DNA of 64,000 nt, from assembly GCF_037042905.1 (NCBI RefSeq), contig NC_087252.1, positions 3,350,001-3,414,000 of the forward strand, read 5' to 3'. Under the pieces are notes generated by a model. It ran no database searches, was not told where the DNA came from, and saw only the letters and a program-made list of their open reading frames with translations. The translations under genes and the position numbers were made by a program. Shown one piece after another: positions 28,250 to 48,172 of this stretch (position 1 is the stretch's first letter; each line of letters starts with the position of its first letter). Origin of the DNA: Lytechinus pictus. Its lineage: Eukaryota.

Positions 28250-29772
28250 TCCTGCCCTAAAAACTGCCAGAAGAAAAATTACTGGCTGTCTGCGACTAAC
28301 AAGAATATAATTATCAAAACCTACTGTGTGGTATTTCCCCTCCACACATTAAAAGAGAGGTGTCAGCACAAAGTGAAAAAGAAAATCAAGCAGGAAGATA
28401 ACCCGGCAGTGATCTGGCAGAAAAACTCTCCTATGGACCAAGCGAATAACTCCCCCCAAGTTGAAGTGAAGAATGACCAACCTGCCAGCTGCCTGTTTGA
28501 TATTTTTTTTCCCAATAAACCATACCAATCCAATCCAGTCTTGGGCTTTAAGAAACGATAGTTAATGCAATAAACGGAAGACATCAGACACTAAAGGAAA
28601 AGACAATTACACAGCCTTGGCTGAAGTGCATTATGTTTATTATGGCTGTCACTTGCCGCATCGTGTTAATGAATATTTGCAGTGTTTACATGTATATTTC
28701 CAAATTTAGGAAAAGGATACAGCTCTGTTTTGCAGTTGAAAAGCAGTTACAATACATTAACATAATTTCATGATCACTCACACTGCATTTGAAGGAACAT
28801 TGACTTCTTCTCTGAGATCTAACTGATCTTCTTTGAGATCTACGTGAATTCCATATACATTATCACAATTTATTTACATCATTACACAAATTGAGGTTCA
28901 CAAACATTTAAATCAGACAAAATTACATTTCTTGTATACGCCTACGATCCACAGCATATCTTGAACTACATTCCATCTGTAATTACTTTGCCTGCCTAGG
29001 CCAATACTACAAGCACACGAATGAAACCCCACCCGGTGCTTAACGGAAATAAAGATTGTGTTCAAAATGTTTTTGCTCGAAAAGTAGCGATTTTGCCAGT
29101 TTCGTATTTTCCCGGCCGTGGCTTACGCAGCCCTAAACGTACTATGTATGGACACATTTTGCATATTCTGTCGTACAGCCGTTAGGAGTAGTTGAGGTGG
29201 AACGACGTCACAAAAGAGAATATAAAGTGCAACATATTTTCGTCAAAGATGGGACACAGCACATTGATTTTTTTATGATCAGCGAGATATACATGATGAG
29301 CTTTGGACTAATTTTGCATCATTATTCAAAGTATCTGGAATATAATGCAGAACTATCAACACATCGTACAATTTAAGGGGGGCATGGAGAATAAATGATG
29401 CATACATTTACATGATTAGGAGTATTTCAAAGAGTTTTGGGTGTCTGTTTGTGTTACTGCCCCCCTTCTCTCGCTACTGATCTAAACCTAAAATATAGTT
29501 GCAAAACTGCATTCCAATTCGATTGCCCTGTCGAATAGTAATTGAAACTAAATGCATACATTGAAACAATGAACTGAATTGATTGATCACCAATACTGAT
29601 TATGAATAAAAACGTCTGGACTAATTAATTACCCGGGTGACTGCAGTTACACTTAGGTATGTAGTAAGCATGGCCGGTAATTCTGATTTAAAAATGGCCA
29701 CTCAATAGTACGCACTGTTTCAAACTGATTCTACAATACGTGGCCGAGCCAAATCAGTTAAAGGGGAGTGAC

Positions 29773-29945
29773 CTGGGGATCGTTTCATGAAAGTTTTCAG
29801 CAATGACAAGTTGGCTTTCTCCGACAGTTACCATAGTAACGGTCAGAGGTATGTGCCTCACAGCCAATCAAAACCAAGGATTTCACTGAAATTGCCAGCA
29901 CCGACAATTTAGTCAGTGCTGACAACTTTCATGAAACACCCCCAG
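29773..29945. mobile_element. Palindromic MITE (Harbinger-like)
   Basis: ctggggatcgtttcatgaaagtt ... aactttcatgaaacacccccag are inverted repeats. Confidence 0.65.
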
Positions 29946-30405
29946 AAGTAATATTCGCTTTAATAAAACATGGAAACAAAAGTTCTGCTTTGATATAATG
30001 TTAATGCATTTTAAGACATAAGATTTTTTTTTGTGGATTTTGTGTGAAACCTCTTTCATGTCTTTTGAGCATACAGGCCAATATATACATCATATCACAT
30101 AGCACTCCATTTGATTCAGTTATACACAAGTGCTCGAGATTTAATTGAACTTCATTTATTGTACATTGTCAACAGGTCAATTCATGTTGGTATGGGTTCG
30201 CGTGCGCGGGCGTGTGTGTGGGTGGGTGTGAAAGTGCATGTATACATTAATTAGCTATTCTACGGGTCTTCATCGTTTTAAATTTAGATCAAGTGTGGCT
30301 ATTGCTCCCTTATCTATGATGATTTTCAATCAATAAAATTCCCCCAAACTTTTTCGTCGGTATTCAGATTTACACAATGACATTTCTTCCTCCAGAATCC
30401 TTAGA

Positions 30406-30477
30406 TTATCGCCTCTTGTGATTTCTTTTTTTCGATTTATCAACCACTGCGTACTCGGCTTCCACATCATGATGAAT
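30406..30477 (-). CDS. IgSF receptor terminal exon
   Basis: ttttcttctag|ATT; IHHDVEAEYAVVDKSKKRNHKRR*. Candidate AATAAA at 30155-30160 on the minus strand. Confidence 0.78.
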   Translation of the reverse strand: MHHDVEAEYAVVDKSKKRNHKRR

Positions 30478-33400
30478 CTAGAAGAAAACATATAGAAAGT
30501 TTCGATAACAAATATTCTTTCAAGATAAACATGACACTGAAAATATATGAATTCTTTTATTGAAATATAGTTATTCGTGAAATTTGAAACATTATGTCCA
30601 CTTACACCTTTAGGCAACACCTAGAGAAATTAGACATTATGGGTCACGATATGTATTTGAGATGTCAATAATTTGATGCATGGTTCAATACATATAAAAT
30701 GATCCGAACATATATTATGCAGCTTATATAAAGATGAGGAGTGATAACGAAATCTTTGGGGATTTAATGCATGCAACATTTTATGATAATAACCGGTAAA
30801 ATATTAGGAATTCAACAAATGAATTCAACATACAAATCACCTAATAACAAGACAACAAATATTTTTCTGAAAAAAAAAATCACGCACAGGTTCAACCATT
30901 ATAATTTGCATATAAAAATTGTTAGGCATATCTGTCGTTCTTGTAAAACAATGCAAATTATCAAAATGCTCTAATATGATGAAACTTTAAAGGTCTGCCC
31001 AAAGTAGTTTGTAGTTTTCTGCGAATCAAATTATCATTGATCTTATGTGAGAATTACACGGTATAAAAATGAATATATTTATACATCATTCTCGCTTCCA
31101 AAGTTACAATAGCTTGCAATCTTGTGAACTCCATGTCATCTGTACCATATTGCAAAAAAGAACCATTGTTGCTGAGTAAAGTGAAAGCAAAGTAATCTGC
31201 TTTTGTTTATAAGTACTTTGCATGGAATGGGCGTTTGTTCTCATTATAGGTTCGATGAGTCCTATTCAGTGATGATCTATTAGGCCATCAATGGTATAAT
31301 GGGTGGATGATTATATCATGTATGTTGTTTGTGTCTCAATGAGAGTTTATGCCCTGCACACTTTAACAGAAACAAAGAAGAATACTATCAAAACGTTTTG
31401 TTATTGATCTGAGTTTTGCCTTCAACATATTTAGATCACAGCTAAACAATTAAAAATGCCATTAACTTGTTGAAGATAAATTTTCCATACTATTTTAGAA
31501 AATGACAGTTGAAGTTATATATTTGTAATTTTATAGTAAACAAGGGCCGCGGAACTGGGAGGGAAGTCCCCAAATATTAAGTGTCGATGTACAGAAACCT
31601 GAAAATTCCAATCAAATTGTGATTGTACGCATGTTCAACTTCCCACCACACTCAAACACACACCCACCCTCACACTGAAATACACAAACACAATTTTAAT
31701 CTTGTTCCGCCGCCACTGATAAAAGCAACGCAAGAAAGTATGGAAATAAGTAATGCTACCTTTTCGATTTCTGCGTGTGAAACCAACGACTGTGCTTTCT
31801 TCTCGTTTCCTGGTTTACTAACTACAGCATACTCAGCCTCAATAGATAGATAAATAAAACAATGATAATATTTCGTATTTCTTTCATATTATACACAAGG
31901 AAACAAAAGTCCATGCTTGCACCCCATGATCTAATACTGGCAGCTTTTGGGTGCAATATTACACCTCAAAGAGCATATTTATTATTTTTACAGTGCCGAG
32001 AAATGCCTATTTTAGCACGTTTCATCTTCGTTTAAAATGCATGGTGTAAAATTACTGCTACGATGTACATATCTGCTCATATCAAGATTGGAATGCTGCA
32101 GATAGCTCTCTTTATTATGTACAAAAGGCTTCTTAGTGTGCAGAGTTCCCATATAAGCTTCCAAGGCTGCATTCGAAGAACGTGGTGAAAAATACAAATT
32201 TTTTAGCATCGTATGAAGAAAGACAAAGTTAACTTACACGATGTAAACCTAAAGTCATAACCCTCCTATTTCATATACATTCAACATGAATGTATCATAA
32301 CGAGCACATTTGTAAAGCTATTTTTTTCTTCAGTTTAGTAACCGTGGCTAATGGAATAAAAAAAAAGAATTTTAATTTACCAGGCCCGTGTGTGATTCCC
32401 GATAAACATGCGGTACGGTTGAACTGACTGTCAGAGAAGATGGATTAAGTAGGTCATAATCTGAGTCGTCATATTCTTCTTCAGTTCGCTGTAGAGAAAT
32501 AAAAAAAATAACATCATTATCAGCCTTTATTATGAATTTTACTCTACTCAGTACATTCGATAATTTAGATGGTTTAACGGACGTAAACTCAAGCTTGGTT
32601 TAACAAAAGAAATTACGTCCATATTTTTTTTAGAAAATTGTATGTACGGTACCATGAAATGAGCCTTCGATCCATTATGATCAACAATCGAAATGAATAT
32701 CTATTCCCAACATTGATTTGCATCACCTTCTTGGCGGGATGCCTTGAATCTTTCTCCTTTTTGTCGATATTCTGTCGACTGACCTGAGCATATTCCGCCT
32801 GTAATAACGACACAATGAAATAGTATAGACTAATAATGATGATAATATAATAATAATAGTCAGATGTTGTACAGCGCATAACACATCATGAATAACGTCT
32901 CTATGCGCTTCCAAAGGACTTGGATATTATTACCCTGGTTGTAGCTCAAGCAGCTTTTACGCGCTCGGCATTTCAGAGAATAAATTCCTGGCAGGTACCT
33001 ATTCACCTCACCTCGGTTGAGTGCAGCACAATGTGGATTAATTTCTTGCTGAAGGAAACTACGCCGTGGTTGGGATTCGAACCCACGACCCTCTGTTTCA
33101 AAGTCAGAAGACTAATCCGCTGGGCCACAACGCTCAGCATCTACAGTTTACGTCTTAATGCCAATGGAAATTAATTCATGAAAATTGGGCATTTTAATGT
33201 ATACTTTACACGTGGAATTTCACTAGAATTAGAAAAGCTTTTTTTCAAAATCAACCGAAATCAACAAGAAATGATGTCAATGCATTGAATCCAATGCGTC
33301 ATATTACCGGGTTTAAAGTTCATACATCAATTAACTTCTAACAACAGGGATCACTAAAAAAATTAAACAAAAATTATGTCATATTTACCAAACCACTAGC

Positions 33401-36400
33401 TGTTTCTCTGTAAACATGAGGAACAGCCCAAGAGAATCCATGGTTTAACAAGTCGTAATCTAGTCCAGTATCTGGATCCTATATCAGAAACAAACAAATG
33501 CTATCATTATTTACGACTTAATTAACGTAAATAATCCCCTAATTGTTGTATAGTACTGTTCAGGTGAACCATGACCTTACAAACTGGAAGTGAAAGTACC
33601 AACCACAGGTTCCAAGGGCCTAATTATATACAACTGGAGGGCTAGAGATATTCGTTCGATCCAACCGGCCATTCGATTTTTTTTTTCAATTTGATATTGC
33701 TGATTGACAAAAGTGTATGAATTTAATTGAAAATCTAACACTTATTCCAGAAATGGTAACTACTGAACTTCCTTTGCAAGATATGGGAAGATATATCAAT
33801 GACTTTGGAACTCTTTTCTGACTGGAGGAAGAAAATAGGGTTATTTTACTGTTTCAGTTGATAAATTTGATCCCATAACAGTATCTTCATAAATGGCGAT
33901 TTATTTTTAAAATGATCTACCCTTCTCTGGTCAGATATGGAATGTCAGATATTTATCCTATCCAATGGTAGTATACATTCGACCCTCTAATTTCACGTTT
34001 ATTTTTTATGAATTTTTCAAAAGTGCCTTTTTAATACACAAGTCTACCATGTCTATGGAGAATGTTTGACACCTAGTATAGGTCCCATGAGCCTAATTAC
34101 AACAGGAAGGCTAGAGATATTCGTTCGACCCAACCCATTCGATTTTTTTTCAATTTGATATTGCTGATTGACAAAAGTGGTGGAATACAATTGAAAATCT
34201 AACACTATTTCCAGAAATAGAAACTACTAAACTTCCTTTGCCCGAATTGGGAAGATATATCAATGACTTTGGGGAATGTTTTCAACTCCCGAGGCCCGTT
34301 TCATATTAAGAGGTACAACTGTTGTAACTTTGCCATTATAGCAACTGCCACGGTAACAACGATTTTGATTGGCTGCTGAGCCCTGATGCCATGGCAATTG
34401 CCATAATGACAAAGTTACAACAGTCGTAACCCTTTATAAAACGAGCCCCAGATATCTAATCAAAGCACGATTGTATTTTCCTTTAGCATGTTTTATATCT
34501 CTAAAATGACACCGCCTCCTATGTACTTTTATTTACAAGGTTTTGTTAAGAATAACAAATACTATATCATAGAATGTGATGAAAATTCATCTAGCAACTA
34601 TTTGTTAAATCATGTTAAGATATCATTAGCACATCGTGTGTCGAGTTGAACACATCGACATCTCGAGAGGTAATGGAGGAATATCACGTTATTTAAACAG
34701 GACATCACACATTAGAACTGTAAAACTATATCTTGTGAATTACCAAAGAAGAATGAATGTAAGGTGGATTTTTTTAACTTTCGTAGCTGTCAATTCATTA
34801 CAGATTATGATGGATCGTTTTCTCAATGGCTTACGCTCATCCTCTCTTGTCATTAAAACGAATAAGCCTATTTCCCCTGGGGTTTCGTTATATTTTATGA
34901 CATATTATGACTTTGAAAATTAATGTACACCACTATACAATCTTTAGTTATCATAAAATTGTGTTATTGTCGTTGTAGTTCTCATTGACTGATTTGCACT
35001 CAATTGCTGTTTATATTTGATCTGTATTTTTATCTGAATTTATTTGTGATGGAAATGAATTTCTAGAATAATGAATTTCTTGAATTTAATGAATCTTGAC
35101 ATCTATATAAGTAGTGGTTTTATAAGTTAAATGCATTTTTTCCCCCATCCCCAGTATAAAGCACACATTCAACATAGTGTGCTTAGAAATAACTGTAGTG
35201 AGCGCCTTATAAATGTTATGTATCATTACTATTATTATTATTATTGTCTCTATCACTATAATTATCTTAAATCAAAGTAGCCACAAACCCTTCTGTTCTG
35301 GCTTCCGCCTCCTCCCCCCAAACCTCTGACATCTTCCGATACTGGCACCAAGGGCCGCGTTGGAATATCAGGTGGGAGAGAAGGAACTGGTCTGTGTCGC
35401 CCAGTGGTTGTTAATGGTCGATCGGGTAATGTACGGTTGTCAACTGGCGTCAGGGGCAATGAACCTCGATTTCGTCGTGGTGTCGACTCTGGGGCATTTG
35501 CCGCGGATTCAGCTTTTTCAAAACGTCTGACTACGGAAAGACAGACGTGATTGCAAAAGATTAACGCAAATATGAATATTTACATGATTAGTACTTGAGA
35601 TATTTGATAGGTATACCATGTATACATGACTGCGTTATAGGTCCTTAACAATACTGTGTACCGGAGCGCATGCAATAATATCAAAATAAACATACATGTT
35701 ATATAGTCCTATAAATGTAAAGTAAAAGTATTAAAGAATAACTTGCTTGAGGAATGTTTTTAGTTAACATGTTTACAGCTTCAAATGTATTTGTTCACGT
35801 TTTACTAAGTCTTAATACGAAGAGCTTAATTCCAAAAGGAGCTAAATCCACCTTTGACCAACAATGATTTTTTTTTAGACAAGTATATGTATCTTAGTGG
35901 TGCGAATCAAATGCAGCATATCACATTTGAAAATAAAAATGGAAAGGTTGGTTAAAATTGATTACAAATTGAGTTTTGTTCCAAAAGGAGCTAAATCCAC
36001 TAAACGGTTATTTCAAATTTGTTATTTTTCCTATTTTACATAAAGTTATGCATTCAATTTTCAGGTAAATGTTTTGGAAACAAGTTTACACCATCAGTGC
36101 AAAGTTAGCTGAAAATAACAGAATTTTACCATTTTTTAAAAATATTTTTAGACTTAGGTCCTTTTGGAATTAGATATCGAAAAGTTGCCGTCCTTAGAAG
36201 AGATGACAAAATATTATGTTTTTTTTTTTTTTGTAATTTTCAACAGATAAACATCAGAAAAGATGTGAAATGTATTTTGCTAGCCATATTATGTGTTTTT
36301 TGTGTTCAATTTCCAATATCAAACATGTTTGAATTGGCAAAAATTGAAATTTTACTAATTATAAAGATCAAAAATTAGATTAAAAATCAATAATGAAAGT

Positions 36401-39400
36401 TCGATTATTGAAATCATGATTTTAATAATATAAGATGATAGTAATATCATATATCTACAAATGAAATAGCAGTGGCTAAGGGAAAGAGATGAATTAAAAA
36501 AACCTTGATTTTACAGAAAAATACCAAAAGTGGATTGAGCTCCTTTCGGAACAAAACTAAGTGCAATGAGGCAAATACCTTGATTTGGAATGGAATATAT
36601 ACACAACAAAAAAAGTAAGTCCCCCCTAAATCAAATTGCTGTAACTTTTGAACGGAATTATTTTGAGATATGATATTTCGTAGGTGGTTTTTTACACTCA
36701 TTGAACAACCTCTGGGGAAAAATGACATTGATCGGTTGAGTCATGCATGAGTAATTAAAGATTGAATTAAAAATGACAATTTTTGAAAGTCACAAGAGTC
36801 GTTTTTCAGATTGTGCAAATACAAAGCTGGGCAAAAGTTGTTTTTAGGTGAATTTTATGGTGTTAATGCTGTTTTACTATCCATTATTTAGCCACTCAAC
36901 ACACAATTTTGATATCGTATGTTCATGGTTGAGTGAGCACAATAATGCAGGGGCCGCGGGGGGGGGGTCACCCCCCACTTTTTTTCCAAAAGCATGTACA
37001 AAAATGTAAAAATGACCATACCATTGTAATTTTTTGCATGGTCAGCCCCCCCACTTTGAAAACCGTTCCGCGGCCCCTGTATAGTGACGTATCATCAAAG
37101 GGGTTTATGGTCCTCTACGACTTGTTAGATCATGTTAAAATTTGAAAATGTTGGTGGCTCCCCCCGATTATAGGCCCCTCCCTCATTTTAAAATTCTAGA
37201 TCCACCACTGATTTGTCCATAAATTAAACTGATCATGAGAATTTGTAAGAAAAAATACATTTATGCAGTATAAAGAGTATTCATTCCTAAGTTTTCGAAT
37301 GTGCTCGCTCAACCATGAAAATTTTAAAACTTCGGAAAGTGTGTGGTGATAGAAATGATGGATGATAAAAACAACAGCAATTAAAGTCTCATTTGAAACC
37401 GAATTTGCCCCCAATATTCACTTTATTACCATTTAAAATGGGTCTGTGACATTGAAAATACCCAAATTCCCACTTTGATGTGTGCTCACTCATCCATAAA
37501 TAAACAAATCGATTTCATTTTTGCACAGAATTCTGCCCATAGGTTGATAAACATTACTGCAAAATGACATTTCTAAAGACAGCCTTAAAAAAAAGTTCCA
37601 CCACATTGAATAGGGGGTTACTTATTCTTAAACATATGCACCCATAATGTACACAAGTCTATGAGAGAGGTCAACATTTTAACAAATATGAAATGAGGGT
37701 TTGTTTCATGGACGGTTTTTGTTACTTCTGCCAACAGTTATTTCATGAAACTTCGCACATGGCTTCAGTGTAACACTATCCAAAATGTGCGCACACCAAA
37801 ATAACCATTTGATATGGCACAGAGTGTGGCCAGGACCTTGAAGTTTCTTCTCATTTGCATAATTTTCGAATATTGTGTGCTCACTGATGCATTAAACATC
37901 GGGATTTTCATAAAAATCAAATCAAATGAACCATGCAAGGAGGTTTGTGATAGATATCCATAGTTACAAATTGCATTTTTTCCAATAACATAAAAAAGAG
38001 CTTATCACATTCCACATGTTCATCCAAGCGTGAATGTTTAATTAAACGCCTTTGAACCATTGAAGCATGTTAATTGGTCATGAACATAACGAAAAAGTTG
38101 AGAAAATATCATTTTCAGTTACCAAAATGAAACAATACTTGCCTATGATATTTCAAAATAGTATCTTTTGTTTTCAATAAATGTTCATTGAACCGTGAAA
38201 CAATGAATATTGTTGAAGATACTCTTCCCAAAAATAACTGTCATCATATTCTATCATTTTTATTGATAGAAATGCGTAAAAAATCCAATTATAGCAAATT
38301 TGGACTTGTGTTCATTCAACCGTGAAATTTAGCCAGAAAAGTTGTATCGTCTTGTAGAAAGTACCTTTTAAAAGCCTTCTGACTATTTTTCATGATGAGA
38401 ATGTGGAATTAGTTCCAATAAAAATGGAATCAAAGTCATGATATTTGGCTTGTGACTTTTGAAAAGTGACATTTGTGCCTTCTGACGGTGCTCACTGAAG
38501 CATGACGTAAAATACGTCCATAACATTTACTCAGAGGGTAGCCTATAAAATTACCTACACGTTCATGTAAAAATATATTAAAAACTCGCATTGGTTTGGA
38601 AATTATTGATGTTTGTTTAAGGGGGGACTTACTTTTTTTGTTGTGTATGGATAAGATGGTAACGATTGTAAAGTTTTAAATAAAAAAATGTCGTAATCAT
38701 TCTCTAATTTTTTTTAACTAGCATGTGTCAAATGTAACACTGACAGTGGTGTAACTACGGGGGAGGGGCACATGCCCCCCCCCCCCCATCGGCTGGCAAA
38801 TCGGGGGAAAAGGAGAAAAAGAGGGAGAACGAAAAATATACGCAGAGGGAGAAGAATAAATTAATGTTTATTATTAGTGTTATGTTATATATATTATATA
38901 GCATAAAAAATATTTTTTGCATAATTTGTAAAAATTAAATTGCTTTTTACTGCCTATGTGTTTATCACTCATGGTGCTTGCTTTGGCTTAGATAAATACT
39001 CCTGTTCAAGGGGATAACATTGTACGAAAATATCCTGTTTTCAAGTCAATAAACACCAAATATATTTCCTCACAATTGGAGTTTTTATTATTGTATGTAA
39101 TTACAAATGCGTATTTTTCATGAATACTTGCCCCATCATGAGTAATTGCCCCATTTTTAGGTCTGATAATAAGGAATTTCTAGTCCGAGTAAACGTTGGC
39201 ATTAGTGAATTTTTGATACGTGTCTGCTCTTCATGAATTCATAAAAAACAGTTCTTAAAATGTCGCTTTTCCTGATTTGAATAGCCAAAACTTATAGCTC
39301 GCGCTTCGCGGTCGCATCATTTTGTTAGTGAAATACGAATTGTCTTGATAAATTCCTAGTAAAAAGCATCAGGATGCCTCTCTTCAGCTTAGAGTTTGAA

Positions 39401-42400
39401 ACATTTCCAGCACCCAATATTTGATTAGTGAGATACGTATTATGTTCATTATTCCAATGAAAAAGTCCTTCATGTGTTTAGGTGTAGTTAAAAAAAAAAT
39501 CAGCCAGCTCTTGGGGCTCGCATTACATAAACCATACGCCAAGATATTTATGCTCTTCATGAATTCCTACAAAAATAGTCTATCCAAATGTTTCTGTTTG
39601 GGGTCAATATAGACCTATATGTATGCTAAAATTTAAGGTCATGCTTCGCACCCGCACTGTTCGTTAGTGAGACAGGTACGTATCATGATTACCAAAATTT
39701 GCTTACATTTTCCCTTTTTAAGGTCTCGGTATCCATGATATCAGAAATTTTCAACTCGTGCTTCGCGCTCACGTTGTTTGATTAGTGAGATACATATCTG
39801 TTTAATATATCTGGCTATTTGAGCGCACCTCGCGCACCCACTAAGGACTCAACATTTTTTATGGTGCCCCGCCCCCATGCCGTGACCCACGGTACGCCAC
39901 TAAACATTGATATTCAGAAAGAATATTAACAGCAAAATGACTTACCAATTCTTTTTCTATAACCAATGATACCACAAACGCCTGCAATGAAAAGCACGAA
40001 GCTCAAACATCCAACGATAATTACAGTGTGCACTGGATTCCAATCTTCAAATGAATTTGAAAGAAAAAAACCATCGTAAGAACATTGCAAAGATATTTTT
40101 GTATTCATATCCAATATTATTTGGGGGTTTAGGGAGAATGACACCAATAAGGAGTTTATTTTATTGCCTTATGATGATACTGAAATTTGCATATATACAT
40201 TTTCCTGTTAGAATTTTTACATTTCATCGCTCGGTAGTCACTTTACCATGTTTACTAGTTATAAAACTGGTATGTCATTGCCATTGAGACCGCCACACTT
40301 CTCTAATAGCATACAGACATTACAGTTACATGTATATACCGAATAAGGGATAGCCAAAAGCATGGACGGAAATCCCAGGGATGCAGAGGGACGCCGCCCC
40401 CCCCCCCCCCCCGCCACACTTTTTGAAAGAGGGGTGGCACGATGTCAATGTTCCCCCTAATTTTTGTGGAAGGAATAAAACAGGAGGAGAAAGAAAGAAA
40501 AAGAAAGAGAAAAATAAGAGAAGGAAAAATAAGAGAGATTGAGGGAAAAAAGAATGACTAAAATAAAACAAAAATGCAGCTTTAATATAATATCAAGTTT
40601 TGAGGTCAATATGCAAAACATTTCTCGGAAATCGAGCATTCATTAGGCCCTACTATGTTTATTTACAAATTGACTTTTTTGAAAATTTTCTGTAAAATGT
40701 TTTATGGTCCGAATATCAACATTTTCAGCTCGCGCCGCCCGCAGGCAATATTTGATATGTTGAGAACCTAAACTCTTCGTGTATTCCATAAAGTTCTGAA
40801 ATTATCGCTTTTCAGATCTGATTGTCCAAACGTCTCAGCATGGGCTGCTTGGTCGCATTTTGATTGGCGAGTTACGTAAGCCTACATTGATTTTAACACA
40901 CCACTTGAAATTCCTCTTTCATGACAGTTTATCAAAATTTCGGCACGCGATTTGCATTCGCATTATTTTTGTTAAAAATGTATTCATCCATGAAACCTAT
41001 TCATAATTACGAAAGTGCTTGTAATTTCCAGTTTTACGCTCTCATTAGGCTCATTAGATTAATATGTAAGATAATATAATTTTCATGAATTCCTAATATA
41101 AATCAAATTCCTAATCGATATTCCATTTTAATGTCGACAAATTTCACCTCGCGCTATAGAAAGATTGTGGAGTGGAAACATTTCCGTCTATGGCCAAAAG
41201 AGCACACCTTTCCTGCGAAAGGTATTTCATGAATGTACAAGTCTCATTAATATCAACGATTGTATAAATTTGTAGAAAATTCATAAATATGCAAAACTAT
41301 AGTCGTAAGATTTATATAGTTTCAAAATCATCTTCAAACTCATAATAGAACATCGCAGTGTGTACAGCCCCCTTTAATACCCCGAAAGCCCTATAACGAT
41401 GATGATGATGATAATAATGATGATGACGGTGGTAATGGTGATGATGATGGTCATGATGATAATGATAATATTAATAATGATTATAATAATAATATTAATA
41501 ATAATGATAAGAATACTAATTATAATAATACTAATAATGATTAATATCATAATAATAATCATACCACTAATGATAATTATGTCAATGATATGATGCAAAT
41601 ATTTTTATAACGTTCCATATTTGCATTTTCCCCGATATAGCATTGCTGTCAATCAGGCTCTTTAGTGTTTTCTTGCCGGGTATCCGTTTCCCCCTCCTGA
41701 GTTGAGTGCAGCATATGAATATGTTACCGACCCTCGAATCTTGTGATCAATACAGCGGAGACACTATACTAAACAACGACACCTCTAATGTTGACAATAT
41801 TATGCAGTTGTGCAGTTAAGTGGATTACTTCACTTAAAAAATCAATATGTATTTCATGTATATTGGATTCGTATGCATCATACAAAAATCAAATGCATAC
41901 ACCCATGTACACACCCAGTTCGGGCTCATGCAAATTTTCAAAATGTTTCTATTTAAGAGAGTGTAGTAAAAAATTACCTGTTTTTTCAGTGGTAGAGATT
42001 AAAGTTGTGTTTGATGTGGCATTCATCGCATAGCCTGTGAATTGAGTTTTGAAAATATTCAAAAAGCCATATTGATGAGTCTACATAATGTATAGTAAAG
42101 GGTCTTCTATTGACAAACGCTGATAAAGTAAAGAAATATTATTCACCCCGTAACTTTATCAAGTCTAAAAATTAGTTCGAACTTCATTAATTTTACATGC
42201 CTGTAATTTATTTTGTAGACGTCAATACGCACTAATCCTTTTAACCCTAAATTTTTAAGGTGTTGAGACACTAAGAGTTCCTTGAAATATTTCGAAAGGT
42301 TACAGGATAATAAGAAATAACACAATCGCAAATACATATATTATGACATGATGATATTACAACGATAAAGTTTAAAATGAAAAAATGTGATAAAAAATAA

Positions 42401-42906
42401 GAGACTCATAGTAGAAATAGCGACATTAGAAGGAGTAGTACAAATTCTTGTAAAATCATGTAAAAATATGGAAGAAATAAACAATGCAAAAAAAAAGTTG
42501 GTTAGTAATCAAAATTGTATTAATGGTGATTCTGATTCGGATAATATAACAGCCAGAAAATTCCACGTTGGTGTCAATATTCATATTCGTCATAGTGGAG
42601 GTGCCGTGGCCGAGTAGTCTACGGCGCCTGGCTATACATGGAAAGTCCGGGGTTCGATCCCCGGCCGCGGCACCTATGCCCGTGAGCAAGGCATTTAATC
42701 TACAATGCTCTTTTATCCTGCTTTCAAACAGATGAAAATGCTATGTGCATTACTGGTAACTAGGTGTGCACTTGTCAAAAATGAAAAGAATATTCATATT
42801 CATGAGGATGATGATCTATTATTTATAAATCAATAACGATCAATATAATTATGATTTTAATGACGATGATTTTCATATTAATAATGACATAATAATAATA
42901 ATAATA

Positions 42907-42941
<35 letters not shown>

Positions 42942-45900
42942 CCGCATTTATATAGCGCTTAATACATCGGAACGACGTCTCTTAGCGCTTTACAGACAAA
43001 TTATTACCCCGGTCATCGGATCCTTGCATGCCCGCATACAATGTATGCACCTTCTCCATTCCCTGGGGAGCATTCCAACAAGAGTTCCAAGACTCAATTG
43101 CTAGGCATACTACATATAGGCTTTCACATCCTACCGGGTACCCATTTAACACCTGGGTAGAGAGTGGCAAAGTTTGGATTAACGCCTTGCAAAAGGACGC
43201 TAGGCCATAGTTGGATTCAAACACACGACCCTCTGATTACAAGGCGAGAGTCAGAACCGCTACGCTACGCTTCCGTCGTTGTGTAGATTATGATACATAT
43301 AATTATGATACATATAATTTTTAATTTCTTATAATGATCATGAACATTTGAGTTTTTGAAATTTGCAAAACCTAACTAAAAATAAATATTATAGGTCAAT
43401 CTTTTAACGAGCAATTGCTAAGTGATAATAAAAAAAACATTCATAATCAAGAATATTAACCTTTCGACTGTCCATAGTTAGCTGTGTTTGAATGACTATA
43501 GTAGAGGCTCGTCAAAGGACTGTTTCCGACAGTTGTGGGTTCTAAATTACGTAATACAAAACACACGTTGACATGAAAATACATTCAACACCAGACGAAA
43601 ATGTAATATGTAAATGAAATACAAGTCATGTAAAAACTAAAAATGTGATGATAATAATGAAAACATAAATTATAAATGTGTTAAAGGATAATTTCCACTA
43701 TGACGATTGTGAAGTGGAAAAACATGAATGAATGAATGAACGAATGAATGAATTCATGGTTATATATAACCCTATTGCGCGTCACCGTATAAATTTACTT
43801 AATAAAAATCCGTAATAGTTTTCTCTTTTACTATAATGTGATTTTGAATCATAAACTACAATATTTCGTTAATATTAAGTTTCGACTGTATCAAATTATA
43901 CACGAATCGAAGTAAATGTTAAAAAAGGGGGTTGAATTTAAAACTATAAGGATGACCCTAGTCCGTGTTTCGTCCTTCACCAAATATCTTTGGTTGATTG
44001 AATATACCTGTAATATAAAACAAATATAATTCTCACTCCCATCTGCATTGAGCAATGCACAAATTCATTTAAATGATATAGCAATATTTGAGGGTTATTT
44101 AATGGGAAATAGTTTTAACTCCTTATTATAATTGTGTCAAGATAAAAATATGTACACGAACTCACCATGCGCACCTTTCTTTTTTATGATAACGGATGCA
44201 TTGATTTGGCTGGAATTTTTGACGATACAAACGAGCTCTATTTCACCGTCATCGTCATCCATATAAGTTGGTGAGAAGTCTATAGTTAGTGTTGGCAAAG
44301 TAAGTCTAGTATCATTTGAGTCATTAAGAAACGTTGACGATTGAAGGATATCCTTCAACATGTTCATGCCCTTTAGGATCTTCCACTCCAGGTCCACAGG
44401 TGGTTTCACTGACGTATTGGTCTTACAGACTAACGTCTTGTTTCCCCCTTCTTTTACAACGATTGATCCTCCTTTAGGAATGACTTTACCATACCGGTTA
44501 TCTTCGACCAACGTCAACCCTTTTGCTGGAACTAGTACACGGTAAAAATGAATTGATAGAGAGGGGGAAATAGAGACCAGTAAAATGCTGACCCGTTTTG
44601 ATATTGACTTATGAACATCATTGATGTCAAATTCTGCTTCTGATTATTATCTTGTGAAATTCACAAAATTACTTTGGAATTTGACTTCTTCAGAGACTCA
44701 TTGCAAGGTCATATACGAGTGGGCACATAGTAGACAAAATCGTTTAAAATCTCTCTTACCCCTTCCCATTCCCCAATTAGGTGAATGCATACAAGTATAA
44801 GATAGTCAAATTCTAAAGTATTTTGCTATTTTCCCCCGAAATAATAGTCAGAAATATTAACGTTCGTTCCAGCGAGAATGCTGATGGAAAATTATCACGT
44901 AAAGCCAAACATAAAACCTAACCTTCAAGACTAAATAAACAATAATAATTATCTTAGCATAGTTCTCAATCAAAAGCTATAATAAAATCATATTTCTCTA
45001 ACCCAATGCCCTCCGACATATCATAACCAGAGCAAATTCGTGTCACCATCTGAACAGTACAAATACATGTATTATTTTTACAAATACTCTCAAAGTATAG
45101 TTTCTCTTAAATGTTAGTTTAAAAAATAATTTGAGCATTACTCTCTAATTTATCAAATGGATTTTAATTCTTGAACATAACATGATTTGGTTTTATTAAA
45201 ATTGATCAAACGAAAATAGTAAATAAATTTTGAAAGAAGGAATTTAGGAGTCAGGGAATACACTTTGCAAATTTAGATTTAACCTCGGATTAATGTTATC
45301 AGCAAAAGGAACACGAAAACCTACTTCAAGGGATAGCTTTTATCTTGGATGAATAACATCAATTTCATCGTTTCATTCAACTTTGTGCATTATGTTTTGG
45401 TAACTTTTTAATTTAAACAATGGAATGAACAAGGATGACATTGTGAAAAGTGAAAAAATGTCAAAGATTTTTTTTTTAAAGGAATTAGATCCATTTCAGT
45501 TTATGAAATGAACAAGAATACCATTTAATAATGGTAATAAGTACAAACGCCTTTGCCCCAGATTATTACTACTGTGTCCACCTCTACTTCATCAAGGATT
45601 TATAAATTATATCTGGAAAATGTGGCGAATGTATTAAATATTTTGATGCTATTTTGTTAATCGTATAAAAAGTGATTTTACCATTAACAGTCAACTTGAA
45701 ATCACACGTTTCCTTATCGTTATCACTTGTCCAATCGAATAAGTATTCACCTTCATGAATCAACGAAACGTTCCGTATTGTTAAATTAGTGGAGGTTAAT
45801 ACCGAAATATTTTTTTCACAGTCAACCGTTATTGAACTGCAGCTGAAAAATATTGAGCCATCGCTTCGCTTCAACTTTATACCAAGATCGCCAGTTGTGT

Positions 45901-46764
45901 CGTTTGGGAGGCAGTGTAGACTGACGTTCTTTCCAGCTTGTACTGTTATATTTACAGCTTGGTCTCCACCTTTAAAATACAAACATTTTAATGTTTTACG
46001 TATAACCAAATCATTTACTATCATTTGAAGCACTTATTACTGACCTACATGCATTAATATGGATCTTGTATCACTGTGGTATCAATATACTCAAAACTTA
46101 AAACAATAATGAAATGGGGAAAATTGTTTTAAAGGTTCTCTCAATTATTTATCACTTAAATAGTACACATATATTATTGTTGATATTTACTAATAGTAAT
46201 TTTAAATGCATGAATATCTGCAATGTTGCAATAACGAATGTCTTTGTCACAACCGGTGTTGTGAATGCAACACCGGAGGTCACTGATATGGATTTGAAGT
46301 TTTTTTAACAAAGTAACTTTGTTCAAATTAATGCTTTTAACTGTACTCCTTACGGTGTTGCAACACAAAATTGAGAACGAGTATGATAATCACCCTTTCT
46401 TTGATCATGTTTCTGTAACTGTTCTCAGTTTTAAGAAAAGGGTATATTAATATGACCACAATTAAGTAGCCTGACATGAGGACGATCGAGGTTATGAATA
46501 CAAAACATAGTCTAGATTTCAACTTAGACTTCTATTGATATTAAACATAAATGAAATCAGAGATAAGACTTGCTGAGTCTAGTCACAATTGATTGTATAA
46601 TTACCCATATTCTACAGACCTAATAATTTTTTTTTTTTTTTTTTTTTTTTTTGGGGGGGGGGGGTCAAATTGCATAGCGTCATAACTACTAAGGAACAAC
46701 GAGAGATATGCTTACCTAAAACGTAACTTATAGATCCAATTATGAAGAAAGATAACTTCCACAT
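30406..46764 (-). CDS. 12-exon type I IgSF receptor (SP-IgV-IgC2-stalk-TM-Pro-rich/ITIM-like tail), predicted 511 aa
   Basis: Exons 46716-46764, 45682-45969, 44166-44531, 41978-42034, 39946-40044, 35289-35530, 33389-33478, 32727-32798, 32381-32488, 31760-31837, 30606-30620, 30406-30477. All introns are GT-AG, phases are compatible, and the 1536 nt run open from ATG to TAA. Confidence 0.82.
30606..30620 (-). CDS. IgSF receptor 15-nt microexon
   Basis: aatttctctag|GTGTTGCCTAAAGGT|gtaagt; VLPKG, phase 0-0. Confidence 0.55.
31760..31837 (-). CDS. IgSF receptor tail exon B2
   Basis: ctattgag|GCT...AAG|gtagca; AEYAVVSKPGNEKKAQSLVSHAEIEK. Confidence 0.7.
32381..32488 (-). CDS. IgSF receptor tail exon A2
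   Basis: ttctctacag|CGA...CTG|gtaaat; RTEEEYDDSDYDLLNPSSLTVSSTVPHVYRESHTGL. Confidence 0.8.
32727..32798 (-). CDS. IgSF receptor tail exon B1
   Basis: ttattacag|GCG...AAG|gtgatg; AEYAQVSRQNIDKKEKDSRHPAKK. Confidence 0.75.
32835..33135 (-). mobile_element. tRNA-derived SINE (family B), intronic
   Basis: Reverse complement starts gagcgttgtggcccagcgg (A box) ... ggttcgaatccc (B box) and ends in a (tat)n tail. Confidence 0.85.
33389..33478 (-). CDS. IgSF receptor tail exon A1
   Basis: ttctgatatag|GAT...TTG|gtaaat; DPDTGLDYDLLNHGFSWAVPHVYRETASGL. Confidence 0.8.
33608..34273 (+). repeat. Intronic direct duplication (~200 bp, 33608-33808 vs 34081-34273)
   Basis: ggctagagatattcgttcga...ttcaatttgatattgctgattgacaaaagtg...ggaagatatatcaatgactttgg occurs twice. 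Confidence 0.8.
34291..34450. mobile_element. Palindromic MITE (Harbinger-like)
   Basis: ggcccgtttcata...ctgttgtaactttgccattat versus ataatgacaaagttacaacag...ataaaacgagccc. Confidence 0.65.
35289..35530 (-). CDS. IgSF receptor proline-rich cytoplasmic exon
   Basis: ctttccgtag|TC...AGG|gtttgt, phase 1->0. Contains RTLPDRP and RPVPSLP (RxxPxxP). Confidence 0.75.
36602..38645. mobile_element. Tc1/mariner-type non-autonomous element, TA TSD, with a nested MITE at 36948-37079
   Basis: ta|cacaacaaaaaaagtaagtcccccc ... ggggggacttactttttttgttgtg|ta, with further imperfect inverted similarity inward. Confidence 0.8.
38744..39902. mobile_element. Non-autonomous hAT-like element, 8-bp TSD
   Basis: cagtggtgtaac ... 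ggtacgccacta, flanked by aacactga / aacattga. Confidence 0.72.
39946..40044 (-). CDS. IgSF receptor transmembrane exon
   Basis: catttgaag|AT...ATTG|gtaagt; DWNPVHT-VIIVGCLSFVLFIAGVCGIIGY-RKRI, phase 1-1. Confidence 0.85.
40361..41192. mobile_element. Non-autonomous hAT-like element with perfect 8-bp TSD
   Basis: catggacggaaat ... atttccgtctatg, with gccaaaag at 40353-40360 and 41193-41200. Confidence 0.8.
41398..41592. repeat. (ATG/ATA)n trinucleotide microsatellite
   Basis: Degenerate gat/aat runs. Confidence 0.9.
41978..42034 (-). CDS. IgSF receptor S/T-rich stalk exon
   Basis: caattcacag|GC...ACAG|gtaatt; GYAMNATSNTTLISTTEKT, 57 nt, phase 1-1. Confidence 0.7.
42595..42788 (+). mobile_element. 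tRNA-derived SINE (family A) with candidate TSD
   Basis: gtggccgagtag (A box) and ggttcgatccc (B box). aatattcatattc occurs on both sides. Confidence 0.85.
42900..43272 (-). mobile_element. tRNA-derived SINE (family C) with L2-like tail and (tta)n end
   Basis: Reverse complement has a tRNA-like head (gtagcggttctgactctcgccttgtaatcagagggtcgtgtgtttgaatcc) and the tail taagcgctatataaatgcgga(tta)n. Confidence 0.85.
44166..44531 (-). CDS. IgSF receptor Ig domain 2 (C2/C1-like)
   Basis: gtgtactag|TT...CATG|gtgagt, 366 nt, phase 1-1. Motifs KTLVC, KPPVDLEW and ELVCIV. Confidence 0.88.
45682..45969 (-). CDS. IgSF receptor Ig domain 1 (atypical V-set)
   Basis: tattttaaag|GT...AATG|gtaaaa, 288 nt, phase 1-1. 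Motifs GKNVSLHC, NLTIRNVSLIHEGEY and FKLTV. Confidence 0.88.
46716..46764 (-). CDS. IgSF receptor signal-peptide exon
   Basis: ATG...TTAG|gtaagc; MWKLSFFIIGSISYVL(G), phase 1. Confidence 0.8.
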
Positions 46765-47289
46765 GATTAGTTAGGTTTGTTTCCAGTTTAAATGGATCAA
46801 ATAATCGTGTAACAAAAGGAAGCGGTAATACATGTAGGTTGCAAAATAAATACTTGTCGTATTATGACAGTTCTGATCGGCAGAATACGACATATTGTTT
46901 GGTGTTGGCGCCCTTTACCTAAAATACCAACATGTTATTATAATCTACAAATTAAACCATGTCATTAATTTCAAAGTATAATCAATAAAATATGATATAG
47001 CCAAAATATTTATTGAATGCCATTTCTCAAAGGAAACAAAGCCCAATTTCGAGGTTTTTTTTTTTTTTTTAAATACAGTATGTTGTGTCAAAATAATGTT
47101 TGGGCAGCTATCCAGCACAAAAGGTGAAAAAAGAAAAGATAAAAATCATCCCCACAGCCGTTACGGATTATGCACATTGCTAATTTCCCAATGCCTCTTT
47201 TTAATGCAACGTAAAAGGATAAGTATGGAAAATCAGGTCAAATGTAATTAAAATACCCCGATAAAGTACCCTATCCAAGCTATTTCACT

Positions 47290-47760
47290 AAACCCATAAT
47301 GTGAAACACCCGAAAATCGCATTCACAATATATATAATTGAAAAGGGAGAAGACTACTCAATACCATTCTTCGACGTTATTGTCACATGTGAACCAAGCA
47401 ACCTCCTCTCACACGAGGTCTCCTACGATCCAACCAAGACAAGCAACGCCACTTTCAGTCATTCCATCGCCCTTTTGTCAACCTGTTTATCCCCAGAACA
47501 TTGGTCAAGAGGGCACCATTAATGATGACAACCATCATATAGGAGGGCTTGAACAACTCAAGTCTAATCTCATAACCCTTAACGTTTATTCCCGCACAAG
47601 ATCAAGACCAAATCTACTCCACCCCGCAGCAAGGATCCAGCCAATAAGTTCTACCCTGTTCAGGCCCTACATCCCACAAAGTTCAGCTTATTTTCAAGTC
47701 AGTGAAAATTGAAGTGGGACGCATATCTTCCAACGCCCTATAATGATACGCCTCGAAGAA
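47290..47760 (+). mobile_element. Decayed Penelope-like element RT fragment
   Basis: HPKIAFT...EKGEDYSIPFFDVIV resembles the PLE motif HPNIKFTxExExxxxLPFLDV. A downstream PYIP is also present. Confidence 0.6.
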
Positions 47761-48172
47761 ATTTTGTCAGCCAAAAATGAAATAACAATTTTGAGTGGTT
47801 AAAAGCAGAATAGTACATCAATACTGCCAAATTTAAATTGCCAAAGCTTATAGTTGACTTGTTCAGAGCTTGAACGCTGCTTTTCTTTGTACAAATGTCC
47901 CACTTGGCACAGTTCCTTAAGTCAAAAGAGAAAGATTCATCTAAAGAGACACGCTGTATATTTGCAAATAAGCAAGTAAATTTGCATATTATGTCGATAT
48001 AGTAAAAACAAGTATTTAGGAATGAATATTACCCCGAATCGCTCTAAATTGAAAACATATACTTTGGGTAAGAAAAGCAAGAAAATTGTCATACAATTAT
48101 TGGGATATCCTTGTTTACTATTACCTAATTTACATGAATTATGACAATTATAATATAAAAAAGAGTACTTTT

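Follow-up and report, generated by a model that had tools for sequence, protein, structure and literature searches.

An immunoglobulin-superfamily gene with a multi-tyrosine tail as a possible damping member of a paired-receptor-like cluster of Lytechinus pictus, a sea urchin

The window analysed here, a stretch of 64,000 nucleotides from Lytechinus pictus, holds a gene whose open frame runs on the minus strand from a start ATG at 46764 to a stop codon ending at 30406 (Table 1). A sequence-only reading of this DNA had proposed 12 GT-AG exons in an uninterrupted frame and the order signal peptide, IgV, IgC, stalk, transmembrane (TM) helix and tail; the rebuilt model agrees in both respects, with GT-AG at all 11 introns. 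However, the 511-aa version given at that time was not reproducible, the 12 coding exons yielding 533 aa that match letter for letter isoform X1 of an 'uncharacterized' Lytechinus pictus database protein (P0009), or 506 aa when the 81-nt stalk exon is omitted. As to splice-site quality, the acceptor at 31837 is GAG and the donors at 43461 and 35289 are weak. Exon 2 is shortened through an internal donor in database isoforms X2, X3 and X5, and exon 9 is alternatively spliced, being missing from isoforms X3-X5 and from a public contig. The length of the public contig is exactly that of the spliced TM and tail exons; spliced reads had been suggested as a check on the model, and these exons, and these only, appear joined in it. 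Downstream of the stop codon, record 19 of run X3 extends to 29917 and record 18 spans 28211-29833 (depths 12.8 and 12.9), and we infer that the two represent one transcript. The protein has a single 19-mer of strong hydrophobicity (2.79 at residue 289) in addition to a hydrophobic N-terminus, and 14 N-glycosylation sequons outside the membrane. A leader, a single TM helix and a cytoplasmic tail are all present, and the gene, as predicted from its sequence, encodes a genuine cell-surface receptor of Ig fold. Behind it lies a YMEM cassette that is intact but has no ectodomain; its exon a is compatible in phase with the gene's exons 3-5, and its exon c carries two private in-frame deletions.

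Table 1. Positions within the window of the gene, its probable 3' UTR, the orphan cassette and the tract common to the gene and its paralogue G6
Feature	Position	Strand	Description
Exon 1	46716..46764	-	ATG and signal-peptide-like leader, 16 codons + 1 nt; identical in paralogue G6
Exon 2	45682..45969	-	Non-canonical V-type Ig domain
Exon 3	44166..44531	-	Second Ig domain, C2/CD80-like, both canonical cysteines
Exon 4	43461..43541	-	Ser/Thr-rich stalk 1; skipped in database isoforms X4, X5
Exon 5	41978..42034	-	Thr-rich stalk 2; skipped in database isoforms X4, X5
Exon 6	39946..40044	-	TM helix, type TM1; core without charged residue
Exon 7	35289..35530	-	Proline-rich juxtamembrane tail; two class I and one class II SH3-ligand motifs
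Exon 8	33389..33478	-	Tail module A1: LDYDLL, HVYRE
Exon 9	32727..32798	-	Tail module B1: AEYAQV
Exon 10	32381..32488	-	Tail module A2: EEYDD, SDYDLL, HVYRE; duplicate of A1
Exon 11	31760..31837	-	Tail module B2: AEYAVV; GAG acceptor
Exon 12, coding part	30406..30477	-	Last AEYAVV, basic end, stop codon
Probable 3' UTR, at least ~2.2 kb	28211..30405	-	Run X3 records 18 and 19
Tract common to gene and G6	44752..47896	-	91-96% identity to G000:C8:3162954-3159715
Orphan cassette exon a	22639..22761	-	Second TM exon, type TM2; splice sites intact
Orphan cassette exon b	21928..22010	-	First exon of YMEM-type tail
Orphan cassette exon c	21190..21492	-	Last exon: YMEM, C-terminal TTYL

The two extracellular domains score below the Pfam curated cut-offs, the V domain reaching 25.5 bits against a V-set threshold of 26 (E 1.6e-5) and the second domain E 0.0035 with Ig_3 and E 0.1 with C2-set_2. 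Profile matches in the PDB are IgSF proteins, the structure models of the two domains (pLDDT 60.6 and 72.6) match Ig folds with best Z of 7.4 and 9.3, and Atlas structure matches are CADM1/ALCAM/tapasin-like (TM 0.65-0.76); by profile and predicted structure, the product answers to the description of a V+C2 single-pass receptor of the immunoglobulin superfamily. The V domain has a B-strand Cys, a G-strand Cys and a C'/C'' Cys pair, and lacks the F-strand Cys and C-strand Trp, and with them the canonical B-F disulphide and tryptophan. Among 12 aligned V domains, the F-strand Cys is missing from 11, including all eight from the array described below; the G-strand Cys is present in all 12 and the B-strand Cys is likewise invariant, while the C-strand Trp occurs in eight, the gene's own not among them. 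Between the second domain and the TM exon stand only 46 residues of Ser/Thr-rich stalk, of which the Thr-rich part encoded by exon 5 is confined to this unit of the array.

The nearest relative of the second domain is domain 2 of nephrin-like proteins and its best fold match is SYG-2 D2 (Z 9.3, rmsd 3.2, 101 aligned), the V profile has its best sequence matches among IgLON/NCAM proteins, and a 'DSCAM-like' multi-Ig/FN3 protein of L. pictus aligns through its domains 1-2 with both domains (hhalign probability 94.5% and 91.9%). Judged by these alignments, the ectodomain shows homology to domains 1 and 2 of echinoderm nephrin/DSCAM-like proteins, and a gene of that multi-Ig/FN3 kind lies on the opposite strand just past the array's far end (G000:C8:3.017-3.030 Mb). 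All of this would suit a nephrin-derived adhesion or cell-recognition code with no immune role, in which variable V+C2 proteins act as surface labels, as do the Dpr/DIP and Beat/Side families of flies. In that case Src-family kinases would phosphorylate the multi-tyrosine tail, which would bring in Nck/Grb2-type adaptors and actin for the sorting or fusion of cells or for neural wiring. The TTYL at the C-terminus of the sister tails, which we take to fit the class I PDZ ligand consensus, could serve as a PDZ ligand, and the Asp that follows two of the tail tyrosines (pY+1) recalls the YDxV Nck sites of nephrin as described in PMC11247170. We consider this reading rather unlikely in view of the evolutionary behaviour of the locus.

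The gene (G1) is the first of nine units in a tandem array at G000:C8 ~3.054-3.397 Mb, all on the minus strand. Among 12 candidates scored, matches to the C exon number nine in the array and one at a second locus. In searches of genome G000 the multi-tyrosine tail was matched once, solely at the gene's own locus, while an alternative last exon has nine copies, all within the array; each of the nine encodes YMEM, a PI3K-type motif, and in four of them the preceding exon encodes YxN. The eight sister units have the other tail type, with YMEM and often YxN; their tails are of ~140 aa, and their TM cores are without Lys, Arg or Asp, the classic activating partner of a paired receptor having a charged TM residue. 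Identity between array V domains (eight units) is mostly 28-66% in pairwise comparison, and exons have been shuffled among units to give mosaics. G6 is the clearest case: it has an intact frame of 444 aa, GT-AG introns and both YVN and YMEM, its leader is identical to that of the gene and its V domain 91% identical, while its TM and last exon are 98% and 89% identical to those of G8, and per-exon trees conflict on its placement. The tract that G1 and G6 have in common extends for 3.1 kb, from ~1.1 kb upstream through exon 1, intron 1 and the V exon to most of intron 2, after which identity drops to 72% at the C exon. G1 and G4, conversely, are alike in C and TM exons (82% each), and the exon 6 TM is 79-82% identical to those of G4 and G9. 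From the tract and the discordant trees we infer gene conversion between units, with unequal crossing-over as the alternative. G7 is a fragment, G3 is frameshifted downstream of YMEM, and G6 did not appear among the matches of C-domain protein searches.

Between the V domains of G1 and G6 there are 10.5 non-synonymous and 1.5 synonymous changes, and six of nine residue changes fall in the C-C'-C'' stretch. Positive selection is nevertheless unsupported, because the dN/dS of ~2 for this pair is not significant (Fisher P 1.0) and other pairs are below one (0.66-0.81 for V, 0.37-0.63 for C). Fast evolution is typical of fertilisation proteins, and a surface Ig family that is urchin-restricted and fast-evolving might belong to gamete recognition, diversifying under sexual selection; we regard this as highly improbable, gamete ligands not being expected to have a signalling tail that is conserved or to form a cluster with two tail types.

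Both tail types occur in L. variegatus, where each maps to a contig of equal length (P0010, P0022), and the multi-tyrosine tail in S. purpuratus (P0011), which on sequence comparison places the two-tail system before the origin of the species, and orthologues exist within the cluster, P0022 and G5 being 88-89% identical between L. pictus and L. variegatus. Clear orthology to a conserved non-immune adhesion gene had been named beforehand as the finding that would count against an immune interpretation; it does not appear among the 14 matches, no conserved one-to-one adhesion orthologue was found there, and 12 of the 14 look like this receptor family. The same matches hold an S. purpuratus tail but no named S. 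purpuratus ectodomain, and the array's ectodomains are fast-diverging and mosaic, some copies being broken. Such birth-and-death is seen more typically in immune receptors than in genes of developmental adhesion, and to that extent the cluster speaks against the adhesion code set out above.

Variation within the species raises another reading, that of an Alr-like histocompatibility locus, in which the V domain would bind a self allele or isoform that matches it on other cells, and a 'self' signal from the tail would stop the rejection to which the YMEM/YxN sisters would otherwise lead by default. A further L. pictus tail (P0012), not encoded in G000, is 55-63% identical to that of the gene and 88-92% identical to the L. 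variegatus tail; set against the orthologue level of 88-89%, this suggests that a single species carries two tail lineages that arose before the species split. Yet another form, from runs X1 and X2, differs without gaps at 31 of 243 bases of exon 7. Sea urchins are described as reacting to grafted tissue (PMC2248247, whose reference list includes a 1977 L. pictus paper), and Alr genes are described as combining exon shuffling with ITAM and ITIM tails (10.1101/2022.03.04.482883). However, P0012 is a 147-aa fragment without an ectodomain and may be a paralogue missing from the assembly or haplotype rather than an allele, X1 and X2 may derive from a species other than L. pictus, and a protein with no Fn3-like domain is not an Alr orthologue by architecture. 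We therefore think a histocompatibility locus distinctly unlikely.

The 220-aa tail has exactly eight tyrosines, in the motifs that the sequence-only reading had listed, and the RxxPxxP motifs noted there are also present as two class I sites, to which we add one of class II. Two matches to [ILVS]xYxx[ILV] are only mildly unlikely by chance (P 0.043, 10,000 shuffles), while five Yxx[LIV] and three Y[ATSV]x[LIV] each have P 0.005 against shuffles, and the motifs are not independent because they were partly born of internal exon duplication. Conservation across urchins is the stronger argument: seven of the eight tyrosine motifs (both YDLL, both HVY[RK] and all three AEYAxV) are retained in L. 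variegatus and S. purpuratus, whose tails are 69% and 56% identical to the gene's, and the EEYDD tyrosine is gone in S. purpuratus. One strict ITIM match is kept in the other two species, the other having T or M at -2. We took SH2 preferences from PMC8631942, PMC8113834, PMC7337045 and PMC11599192. In PD-1, a charged pY+1 residue is reported to have failed to recruit SHP1 where Ala worked (PMC8631942), and the Asp at pY+1 of both YDLL motifs, in place of a medium nonpolar residue, would make them poor SHP1 sites; LDYDLL and SDYDLL, earlier called ITIMs, do match the pattern, but the assignment is probably misplaced. The three AEYAxV sites have a nonpolar pY+1 but depart from consensus at pY-2, the C-SH2 consensus as given in PMC8113834 leaving out their Ala. 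Even so, AEYAxV sites are probably the better candidates for phosphatase binding, and the conserved signalling tail is probably inhibitory in type. Its sign is not safely readable from sequence because SH2 motifs are short, YxxM is present in an inhibitory receptor too (CTLA-4), and SHP2 is able to act positively.

A tail that is not inhibitory, functioning instead as an activating or trafficking scaffold, is in our view very unlikely. The HVYRE...AEYAxV pairs could bind Syk/Shark, since the tyrosines of each A-B module pair lie at a distance of 10 residues, that of an ITAM whose spacer has 6 residues, and this spacing is retained in all three species; DYDLL, poor as an SHP1 site, could be an acidic dileucine or YxxL sorting signal of a phagocytic or endocytic receptor. 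Against the ITAM consensus quoted in 10.1101/2022.03.04.482883 (L/I at both positions), however, the first tyrosine has Thr/Ser at +3 and the second Val, and S. purpuratus loses the DxxLL reading (EYDLL) while retaining YxxL.

Our preferred interpretation, which we hold to be evenly poised, is that, within a paired-receptor-like sea urchin IgSF cluster built from nephrin-like V+C2 domains, this gene acts as the damping member. The earlier suggestion of an immune or self-recognition receptor gains circumstantial backing: the cluster is tandem, mosaic and quick to diverge, and it includes a partner whose V domain is nearly identical and whose tail is of the opposite type. Binding of ligand by the V domain would cluster the receptor, a Src-family kinase docked on RxxPxxP would phosphorylate the tail, and the repeated AEYAxV motifs (YDLL less so) would recruit SHP-type tandem-SH2 phosphatases or Csk, damping signalling. 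Sisters sensing the same or related ligands would recruit PI3K (YxxM) and Grb2 (YxN) directly, with activation appearing, for example, as phagocytosis or spreading in coelomocytes. Gene conversion would continually renew activating look-alikes of the inhibitory V domain, a parallel to those vertebrate pairs that pathogens mimicking self ligands have shaped. The definition of paired receptors in PMC13358205 includes an ITAM adaptor for the activating partner. G1/G6 and G1/G4 are linked genes with highly similar ectodomains, while the sister units, having neither a short tail nor a charged TM residue, do not conform to such an adaptor-using partner.

The likeness drawn earlier to Siglec/CD33, SIRP-alpha and Alr is one of analogy and not of membership, the ectodomain being nephrin/DSCAM-like. 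Siglec V domains have a sialic-acid-binding arginine on the F strand, where the gene has Asp; SIRP-alpha follows its V domain with two C1-set domains, where the gene has a single membrane-proximal Ig domain that is C2/CD80-like (by fold, and at Pfam E 0.1). The Alr proteins of Hydractinia are likewise clustered, single-pass invertebrate IgSF proteins whose V domains are unusual and which combine exon shuffling and alternative splicing with both tail types, but are described as having an Fn3-like domain between Ig domains and TM and a domain 1 without both pin cysteines (10.1101/2022.03.04.482883). The urchin family instead keeps an invariant B-strand Cys, adds an invariant G-strand Cys, and has one C2-like domain and a Ser/Thr stalk in place of Fn3, and its activating-type motif is YxxM/YxN, not ITAM. 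None of the 14 matches, six of them unnamed, carries an Alr name. With nephrin, SYG-2 and the echinoderm 'DSCAM-like' protein (P0021) the gene has in common domains 1-2, including the C'/C'' cysteine pair, and a tyrosine-rich tail; homology is restricted to those domains of proteins with many Ig and FN3 domains, whereas the gene has two Ig domains, no FN3, a lost F-strand Cys, tandem expansion and an unrelated tail. The putative IgV-IgC1 receptors of S. purpuratus have the same two-Ig V+C transmembrane layout and, compared here by review description only, may or may not be the same family; the review's passages on them mention no cluster, paired tails or ITIMs (PMC3308324). The eight sister units resemble CD28/ICOS tails in having YxxM and YxN, motifs on which PI3K and Grb2 can dock, but have two Ig domains rather than one and place YxN and YxxM on separate tyrosines; the gene itself has no YxxM, the sisters share the YxxM motif alone with CD28/CTLA4, and a CD28-family homologue was not found in sea urchin according to PMC11599192.

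Sequence evidence of orthology to vertebrate paired receptors is absent, and yet if our interpretation is true the cluster would be a sea urchin system resembling vertebrate paired on/off immune receptors. As in the pairs described in PMC13358205, the genes are linked, an N-terminal V domain is kept near-identical through a conversion-like tract, and the tails differ, one being long with ITIM-like tyrosines. Vertebrate pairs use DAP12-type ITAM adaptors, whereas the urchin partners have long YxN/YxxM tails of their own beneath uncharged TM cores, in a ratio of one inhibitory-type gene to eight activating-type units.

The window gene is a real, conserved receptor, probably expressed, already annotated automatically and uncharacterised. 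Its frame runs on the minus strand from an ATG at 46764 to a stop codon at 30406, with 12 exons and 11 introns, all GT-AG, and its 533-aa product is identical to isoform X1 of 'uncharacterized protein LOC135154845 [Lytechinus pictus]' (P0009). The ends, exon count and motifs of the sequence-only reading stand; its length of 511 aa was not reproducible, the 12 exons giving 533 aa, or 506 aa without stalk exon 1. Four more database isoforms leave out stalk exons, exon 9 (AEYAQV) or the final 23 codons of V. Three of them use an internal donor in the V exon (window 45682-45969, minus strand) that removes the F and G strands, and their V domain would be incomplete. The tail comprises 220 aa with eight tyrosines and three SH3-ligand motifs, and is internally duplicated (exons 8/10; exons 9/11/12). 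Exon 7 matched no Pfam family, and comparison of the tail with the Atlas gave no look-alike (best 0.79). The intron that separates tail exon 7 from tail exon 8 holds a 130-bp direct repeat (89%; window 33679-33808 and 34143-34272).

Features of the window and of the surrounding contig (G000:C8 is contig NC_087252.1 of the L. pictus genome searched; other positions are those of the window)
Feature	Position	Strand	Remarks
Window gene, exons 1-6	46764-46716, 45969-45682, 44531-44166, 43541-43461, 42034-41978, 40044-39946	-	
Window gene, exons 7-12	35530-35289, 33478-33389, 32798-32727, 32488-32381, 31837-31760, 30477-30406	-	
Orphan cassette	22761-22639, 22010-21928, 21492-21190	-	second TM and YMEM...TTYL tail, intact splice sites
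LINE-type retrotransposon	10680-14463	+	three overlapping pieces with frames for endonuclease and reverse transcriptase, by eye from the translations
THAP-like zinc-finger frame	54197-54736	+	from translation
53-bp tandem array	55990-57382		between the THAP-like and integrase-like frames
Integrase-like frame	59275-60591	+	438 aa
Nephrin/DSCAM-like multi-Ig and FN3 gene	G000:C8:3017390-3030700 (L032-L034)	+	first domains homologous to family V and C
Second family locus	G000:C8:38093150-38110470 (L056-L058)		decayed; C exon intact, one TM-like exon, four V pieces all broken

The two frames that we take to be THAP-like and integrase-like, together with the 53-bp array, are possibly one mobile element.

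Evidence of splicing comes from three public runs (X1-X3), which hold contigs only, none recorded as RNA, and which were aligned to window 22600-42100, a stretch outside which the V, C and leader exons lie. In run X3, record 19, with 1179 bases at depth 12.8, matches the window without a mismatch. Exon 7 takes up its bases 101-343, and exon 12 together with the 3' UTR its bases 619-1179; positions in exons 8, 10 and 11 are listed at an equal depth, and the lengths 1+99+242+276+561 make exactly 1179. From this arithmetic we infer that the record joins the TM exon to exons 7, 8, 10, 11 and 12 and skips exon 9; no such joints stand among the rows listed, and X3 and the database models may not be independent. 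We take the V, C and leader exons to be joined because the database isoforms join them and because X3 contains 0.34 of the words of window 44160-45975, where the exon share is 0.36.

The window gene is the first (G1) of nine units that lie head to tail, all on the minus strand, from 3.397 to 3.054 Mb of the contig, within an examined region of 2.95-3.464 Mb where exons were located by iterated profiles. V and C exons are present in eight of the nine, while G7 retains nothing but a tail and one half of its C exon, and the last exon of G3 is frameshifted. Three units correspond to partial database proteins (G4 to P0006, G8 to P0023, G9 to P0007); P0006 begins inside C and P0007 omits V, while in G4 (G000:C8:3277292-3253768) the leader and V exon lie some 22 kb upstream of the unit's own C exon. 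The YMEM last exon had nine matches in the genome (12 candidates scored), every one in the array; all nine carry YMEM, eight end in TTYL, and in four the preceding exon supplies YxN. In the sister tails, the tyrosine contexts listed contain no match to the ITIM pattern, and searches of the genome for the multi-tyrosine tail returned the window locus and otherwise one weak, stop-ridden match. Elsewhere on the contig, the second family locus has the tail motifs YAI, YMTL, YMAM and YES; an arrangement of several V segments feeding its one C exon was rejected, all four V-like pieces being stop-broken or truncated. V counts outside the examined regions come from a single-sequence search and are lower bounds.

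Identity between the V domains of different units is mostly 28-66%, with one exception: G1 and G6 share 91%. G6 is an intact 444-aa frame with GT-AG introns, YVN and YMEM, and it is a mosaic, its leader and V being those of G1, its C being 70-76% identical to those of G1, G4 and G9, and its TM (98%) and last exon (89%) matching G8. Trees, which omit G7 from V and C and G3 from the last exon, group its V with that of G1 (96/98) and its last exon with that of G8 (86/97), and set its C beside G1, G4 and G9 (80/91). The DNA tract shared with G1 extends over 3.1 kb (window 47896-44752, 91-96% identical), taking in intron sequence as well as 1.1 kb ahead of the ATG, and identity falls to 72% at the C exon; G6 would thus be a conversion-derived twin of G1. 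Six of the nine residue changes between the two V domains fall in the C-C'-C'' stretch. Positive selection on V is not shown, as the excess of non-synonymous over synonymous changes in this pair (10.5 versus 1.5) lacks significance; purifying selection acts on the C exons (dN/dS 0.37-0.63, eight pairs). A role for the family in gamete recognition seems to us very improbable. In L. variegatus, P0022, a V-C-TM-YMEM protein, is likewise mosaic, with V and C like those of G5 (88-89%) and a last exon nearest G4 and G9 (82-83%).

The first domain of G1 is V-like (Pfam V-set E 1.6e-5, slightly under the cut-off) and lacks the C-strand Trp; the F-strand Cys is missing from 11 of 12 aligned family V domains, and the G-strand Cys is invariant in all 12. 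Fold comparisons of its model (pLDDT 60.6) are tied at Z 7.4-6.4 among NKp44, CD226, B7-H6, CD47 and also non-IgSF folds, and therefore no family can be assigned by fold. Domain 2 has both cysteines, and its model (pLDDT 72.6) best matches SYG-2 domain 2 (Z 9.3, rmsd 3.2, 101 aligned), other I/C2 domains scoring about one unit lower. The family profiles for both domains also align to domains 1-2 of an L. pictus 'DSCAM-like' multi-Ig/FN3 protein (probability 94.5% and 91.9%), and the nephrin/DSCAM-like gene in the table follows some 25 kb past the end unit, on the opposite strand and convergent with the array end. The receptor family may therefore be a two-domain offshoot of nephrin-like proteins. 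That the cluster might still serve a nephrin-like adhesion code is a reading we hold to be unlikely, while giving it some weight.

Turning to the tail, the fit of LDYDLL and SDYDLL to the ITIM pattern is weak evidence when taken alone (P 0.043). In the accessible text on PD-1, Asp at pY+1 failed to recruit SHP1, while Ala, Val, Leu and Ile did recruit it (PMC8631942), and the C-SH2 preference of SHP2 is given, in the part of the source available to us, as (T/V/I/y)xpY(A/s/t)x(I/V/L) (PMC8113834). AEYAxV agrees with this preference at +1 and +3, not at -2. Because of this fit, set against the Asp at pY+1 of YDLL, the conserved and triplicated AEYAxV motifs would be the likelier phosphatase docking sites of the G1 tail; YDLL may act in sorting or bind a different SH2 protein. 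AEYAxV could alternatively, we presume, dock Csk. A tail that is not inhibitory at all, being ITAM-like or concerned with trafficking, is in our judgement quite improbable. The sister tails supply both p85-type (YMEM) and Grb2-type (YxN) motifs, p85 binding pY-M-x-M and Grb2 requiring Asn at +2 according to the passages available (PMC7337045, PMC11599192).

A search with P0009 against 1.84 billion representatives gave 14 hits. The named tail homologues are 69% (P0010, L. variegatus), 56% (P0011, S. purpuratus) and 55% (P0012, L. pictus) identical to the G1 tail, and seven of the eight tail tyrosine motifs are kept in both full-length homologues, those of L. variegatus and S. purpuratus; a further protein, P0024, has a C domain with YMxM, YVN and STYCEI motifs and TTYL. 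The tail of P0012, which is not encoded in the genome searched, shares 88-92% identity with that of L. variegatus as against 55-63% with that of the window gene, all tail forms are about equidistant from S. purpuratus (49-58%), and P0022 and G5 agree at 88-89% in V and C. This pattern of identities indicates that two tail lineages predating the species split have been recorded from L. pictus, which could be ancient alleles or else a paralogue missing from the assembly. Runs X1 and X2 (coded organism A) carry another form, differing at 31 of 243 bases over exon 7 with no gaps. We consider it improbable that the locus is an Alr-like histocompatibility locus.

About 8 kb (~7.6 kb) downstream of the G1 stop codon lies the orphan cassette. 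It is phase-compatible with G1, and an on-paper join to the G1 ectodomain leaves an open 449-aa frame. A profile search between G1 and the cassette found no V, C or stalk exon, and a translated comparison of window 30400-22770 with six units found, in place of an ectodomain, shared repeats only. None of the other copies is as divergent; it carries two private deletions, each frame-keeping, and its dN/dS of 0.82-1.23 against three sisters is not significant. A protein search with its last exon returned nothing among 72 candidates and missed the known paralogues too, and is thus uninformative. Either the cassette gives G1 an alternative 3' end, or it is what remains of a unit stripped of its ectodomain. 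No joint to 22761 is among those listed and bin depth there is 0.73, 0 and 0 in the three runs, but only stalk exon 5 falls inside the aligned stretch and contigs show presence, not absence, so the runs speak neither for nor against such splicing.

Taken alone, the receptor has a familiar layout; the novelty is the cluster, in which one tyrosine-rich tail stands among eight YMEM-type sisters, a twin and an orphan tail. Given this architecture, tail dichotomy and mosaicism, we think it an even call that the cluster is a paired-receptor-like system in which G1 damps and the YMEM/YxN units activate; kinase docking, the SH2 partners, the sign of the signal, the cell type and the ligand are its predicted parts. 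A bolder and rather improbable version would make the locus a sea urchin self/non-self switch, Alr- or KIR-like, in which ancient trans-species inhibitory forms are balanced by shuffled PI3K/Grb2-coupled look-alikes, and G1 also flips sign by splicing V+C past the tyrosine-rich tail onto the TM-YMEM cassette. If true, this would mean that a paired-receptor system arose convergently in a non-chordate deuterostome, and it would give a first molecular candidate for echinoderm graft rejection. Allograft responses and huge innate receptor families are described in echinoderms, and the portions of these sources available name no self-recognition receptor (PMC2248247, PMC9763293, PMC11359984; further background, likewise in part, in PMC11999971, PMC7916673 and PMC11247170).

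V+C Ig transmembrane genes have been reported in the S. purpuratus genome, according to the accessible part of a review (PMC3308324), and the cluster genes may already figure in the V+C listings of the primary papers. Our search of the literature open without subscription, to which the 2006 papers on the urchin immunome do not belong, found none that describes a sea urchin cluster combining paired tails with a conversion tract, and none on echinoderm paired Ig receptors. Should the paired reading hold, the inhibitory/activating logic of KIR, Siglec and SIRP would have an independent origin in nephrin-like domains, with tails that couple directly to PI3K/Grb2 replacing DAP12, and as the locus is compact and belongs to a genetically tractable urchin, the question is directly testable. 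ITIM- and ITAM-bearing Ig receptors are known in cnidarians, and set against the main-text passages of that report (10.1101/2022.03.04.482883) the G1 cluster would work like the Alr family without being a member of it. The same holds for pairs of the Siglec-5/14 type, and G1 and G6 match the description of paired receptors in the available text of PMC13358205, save for the activating mechanism.
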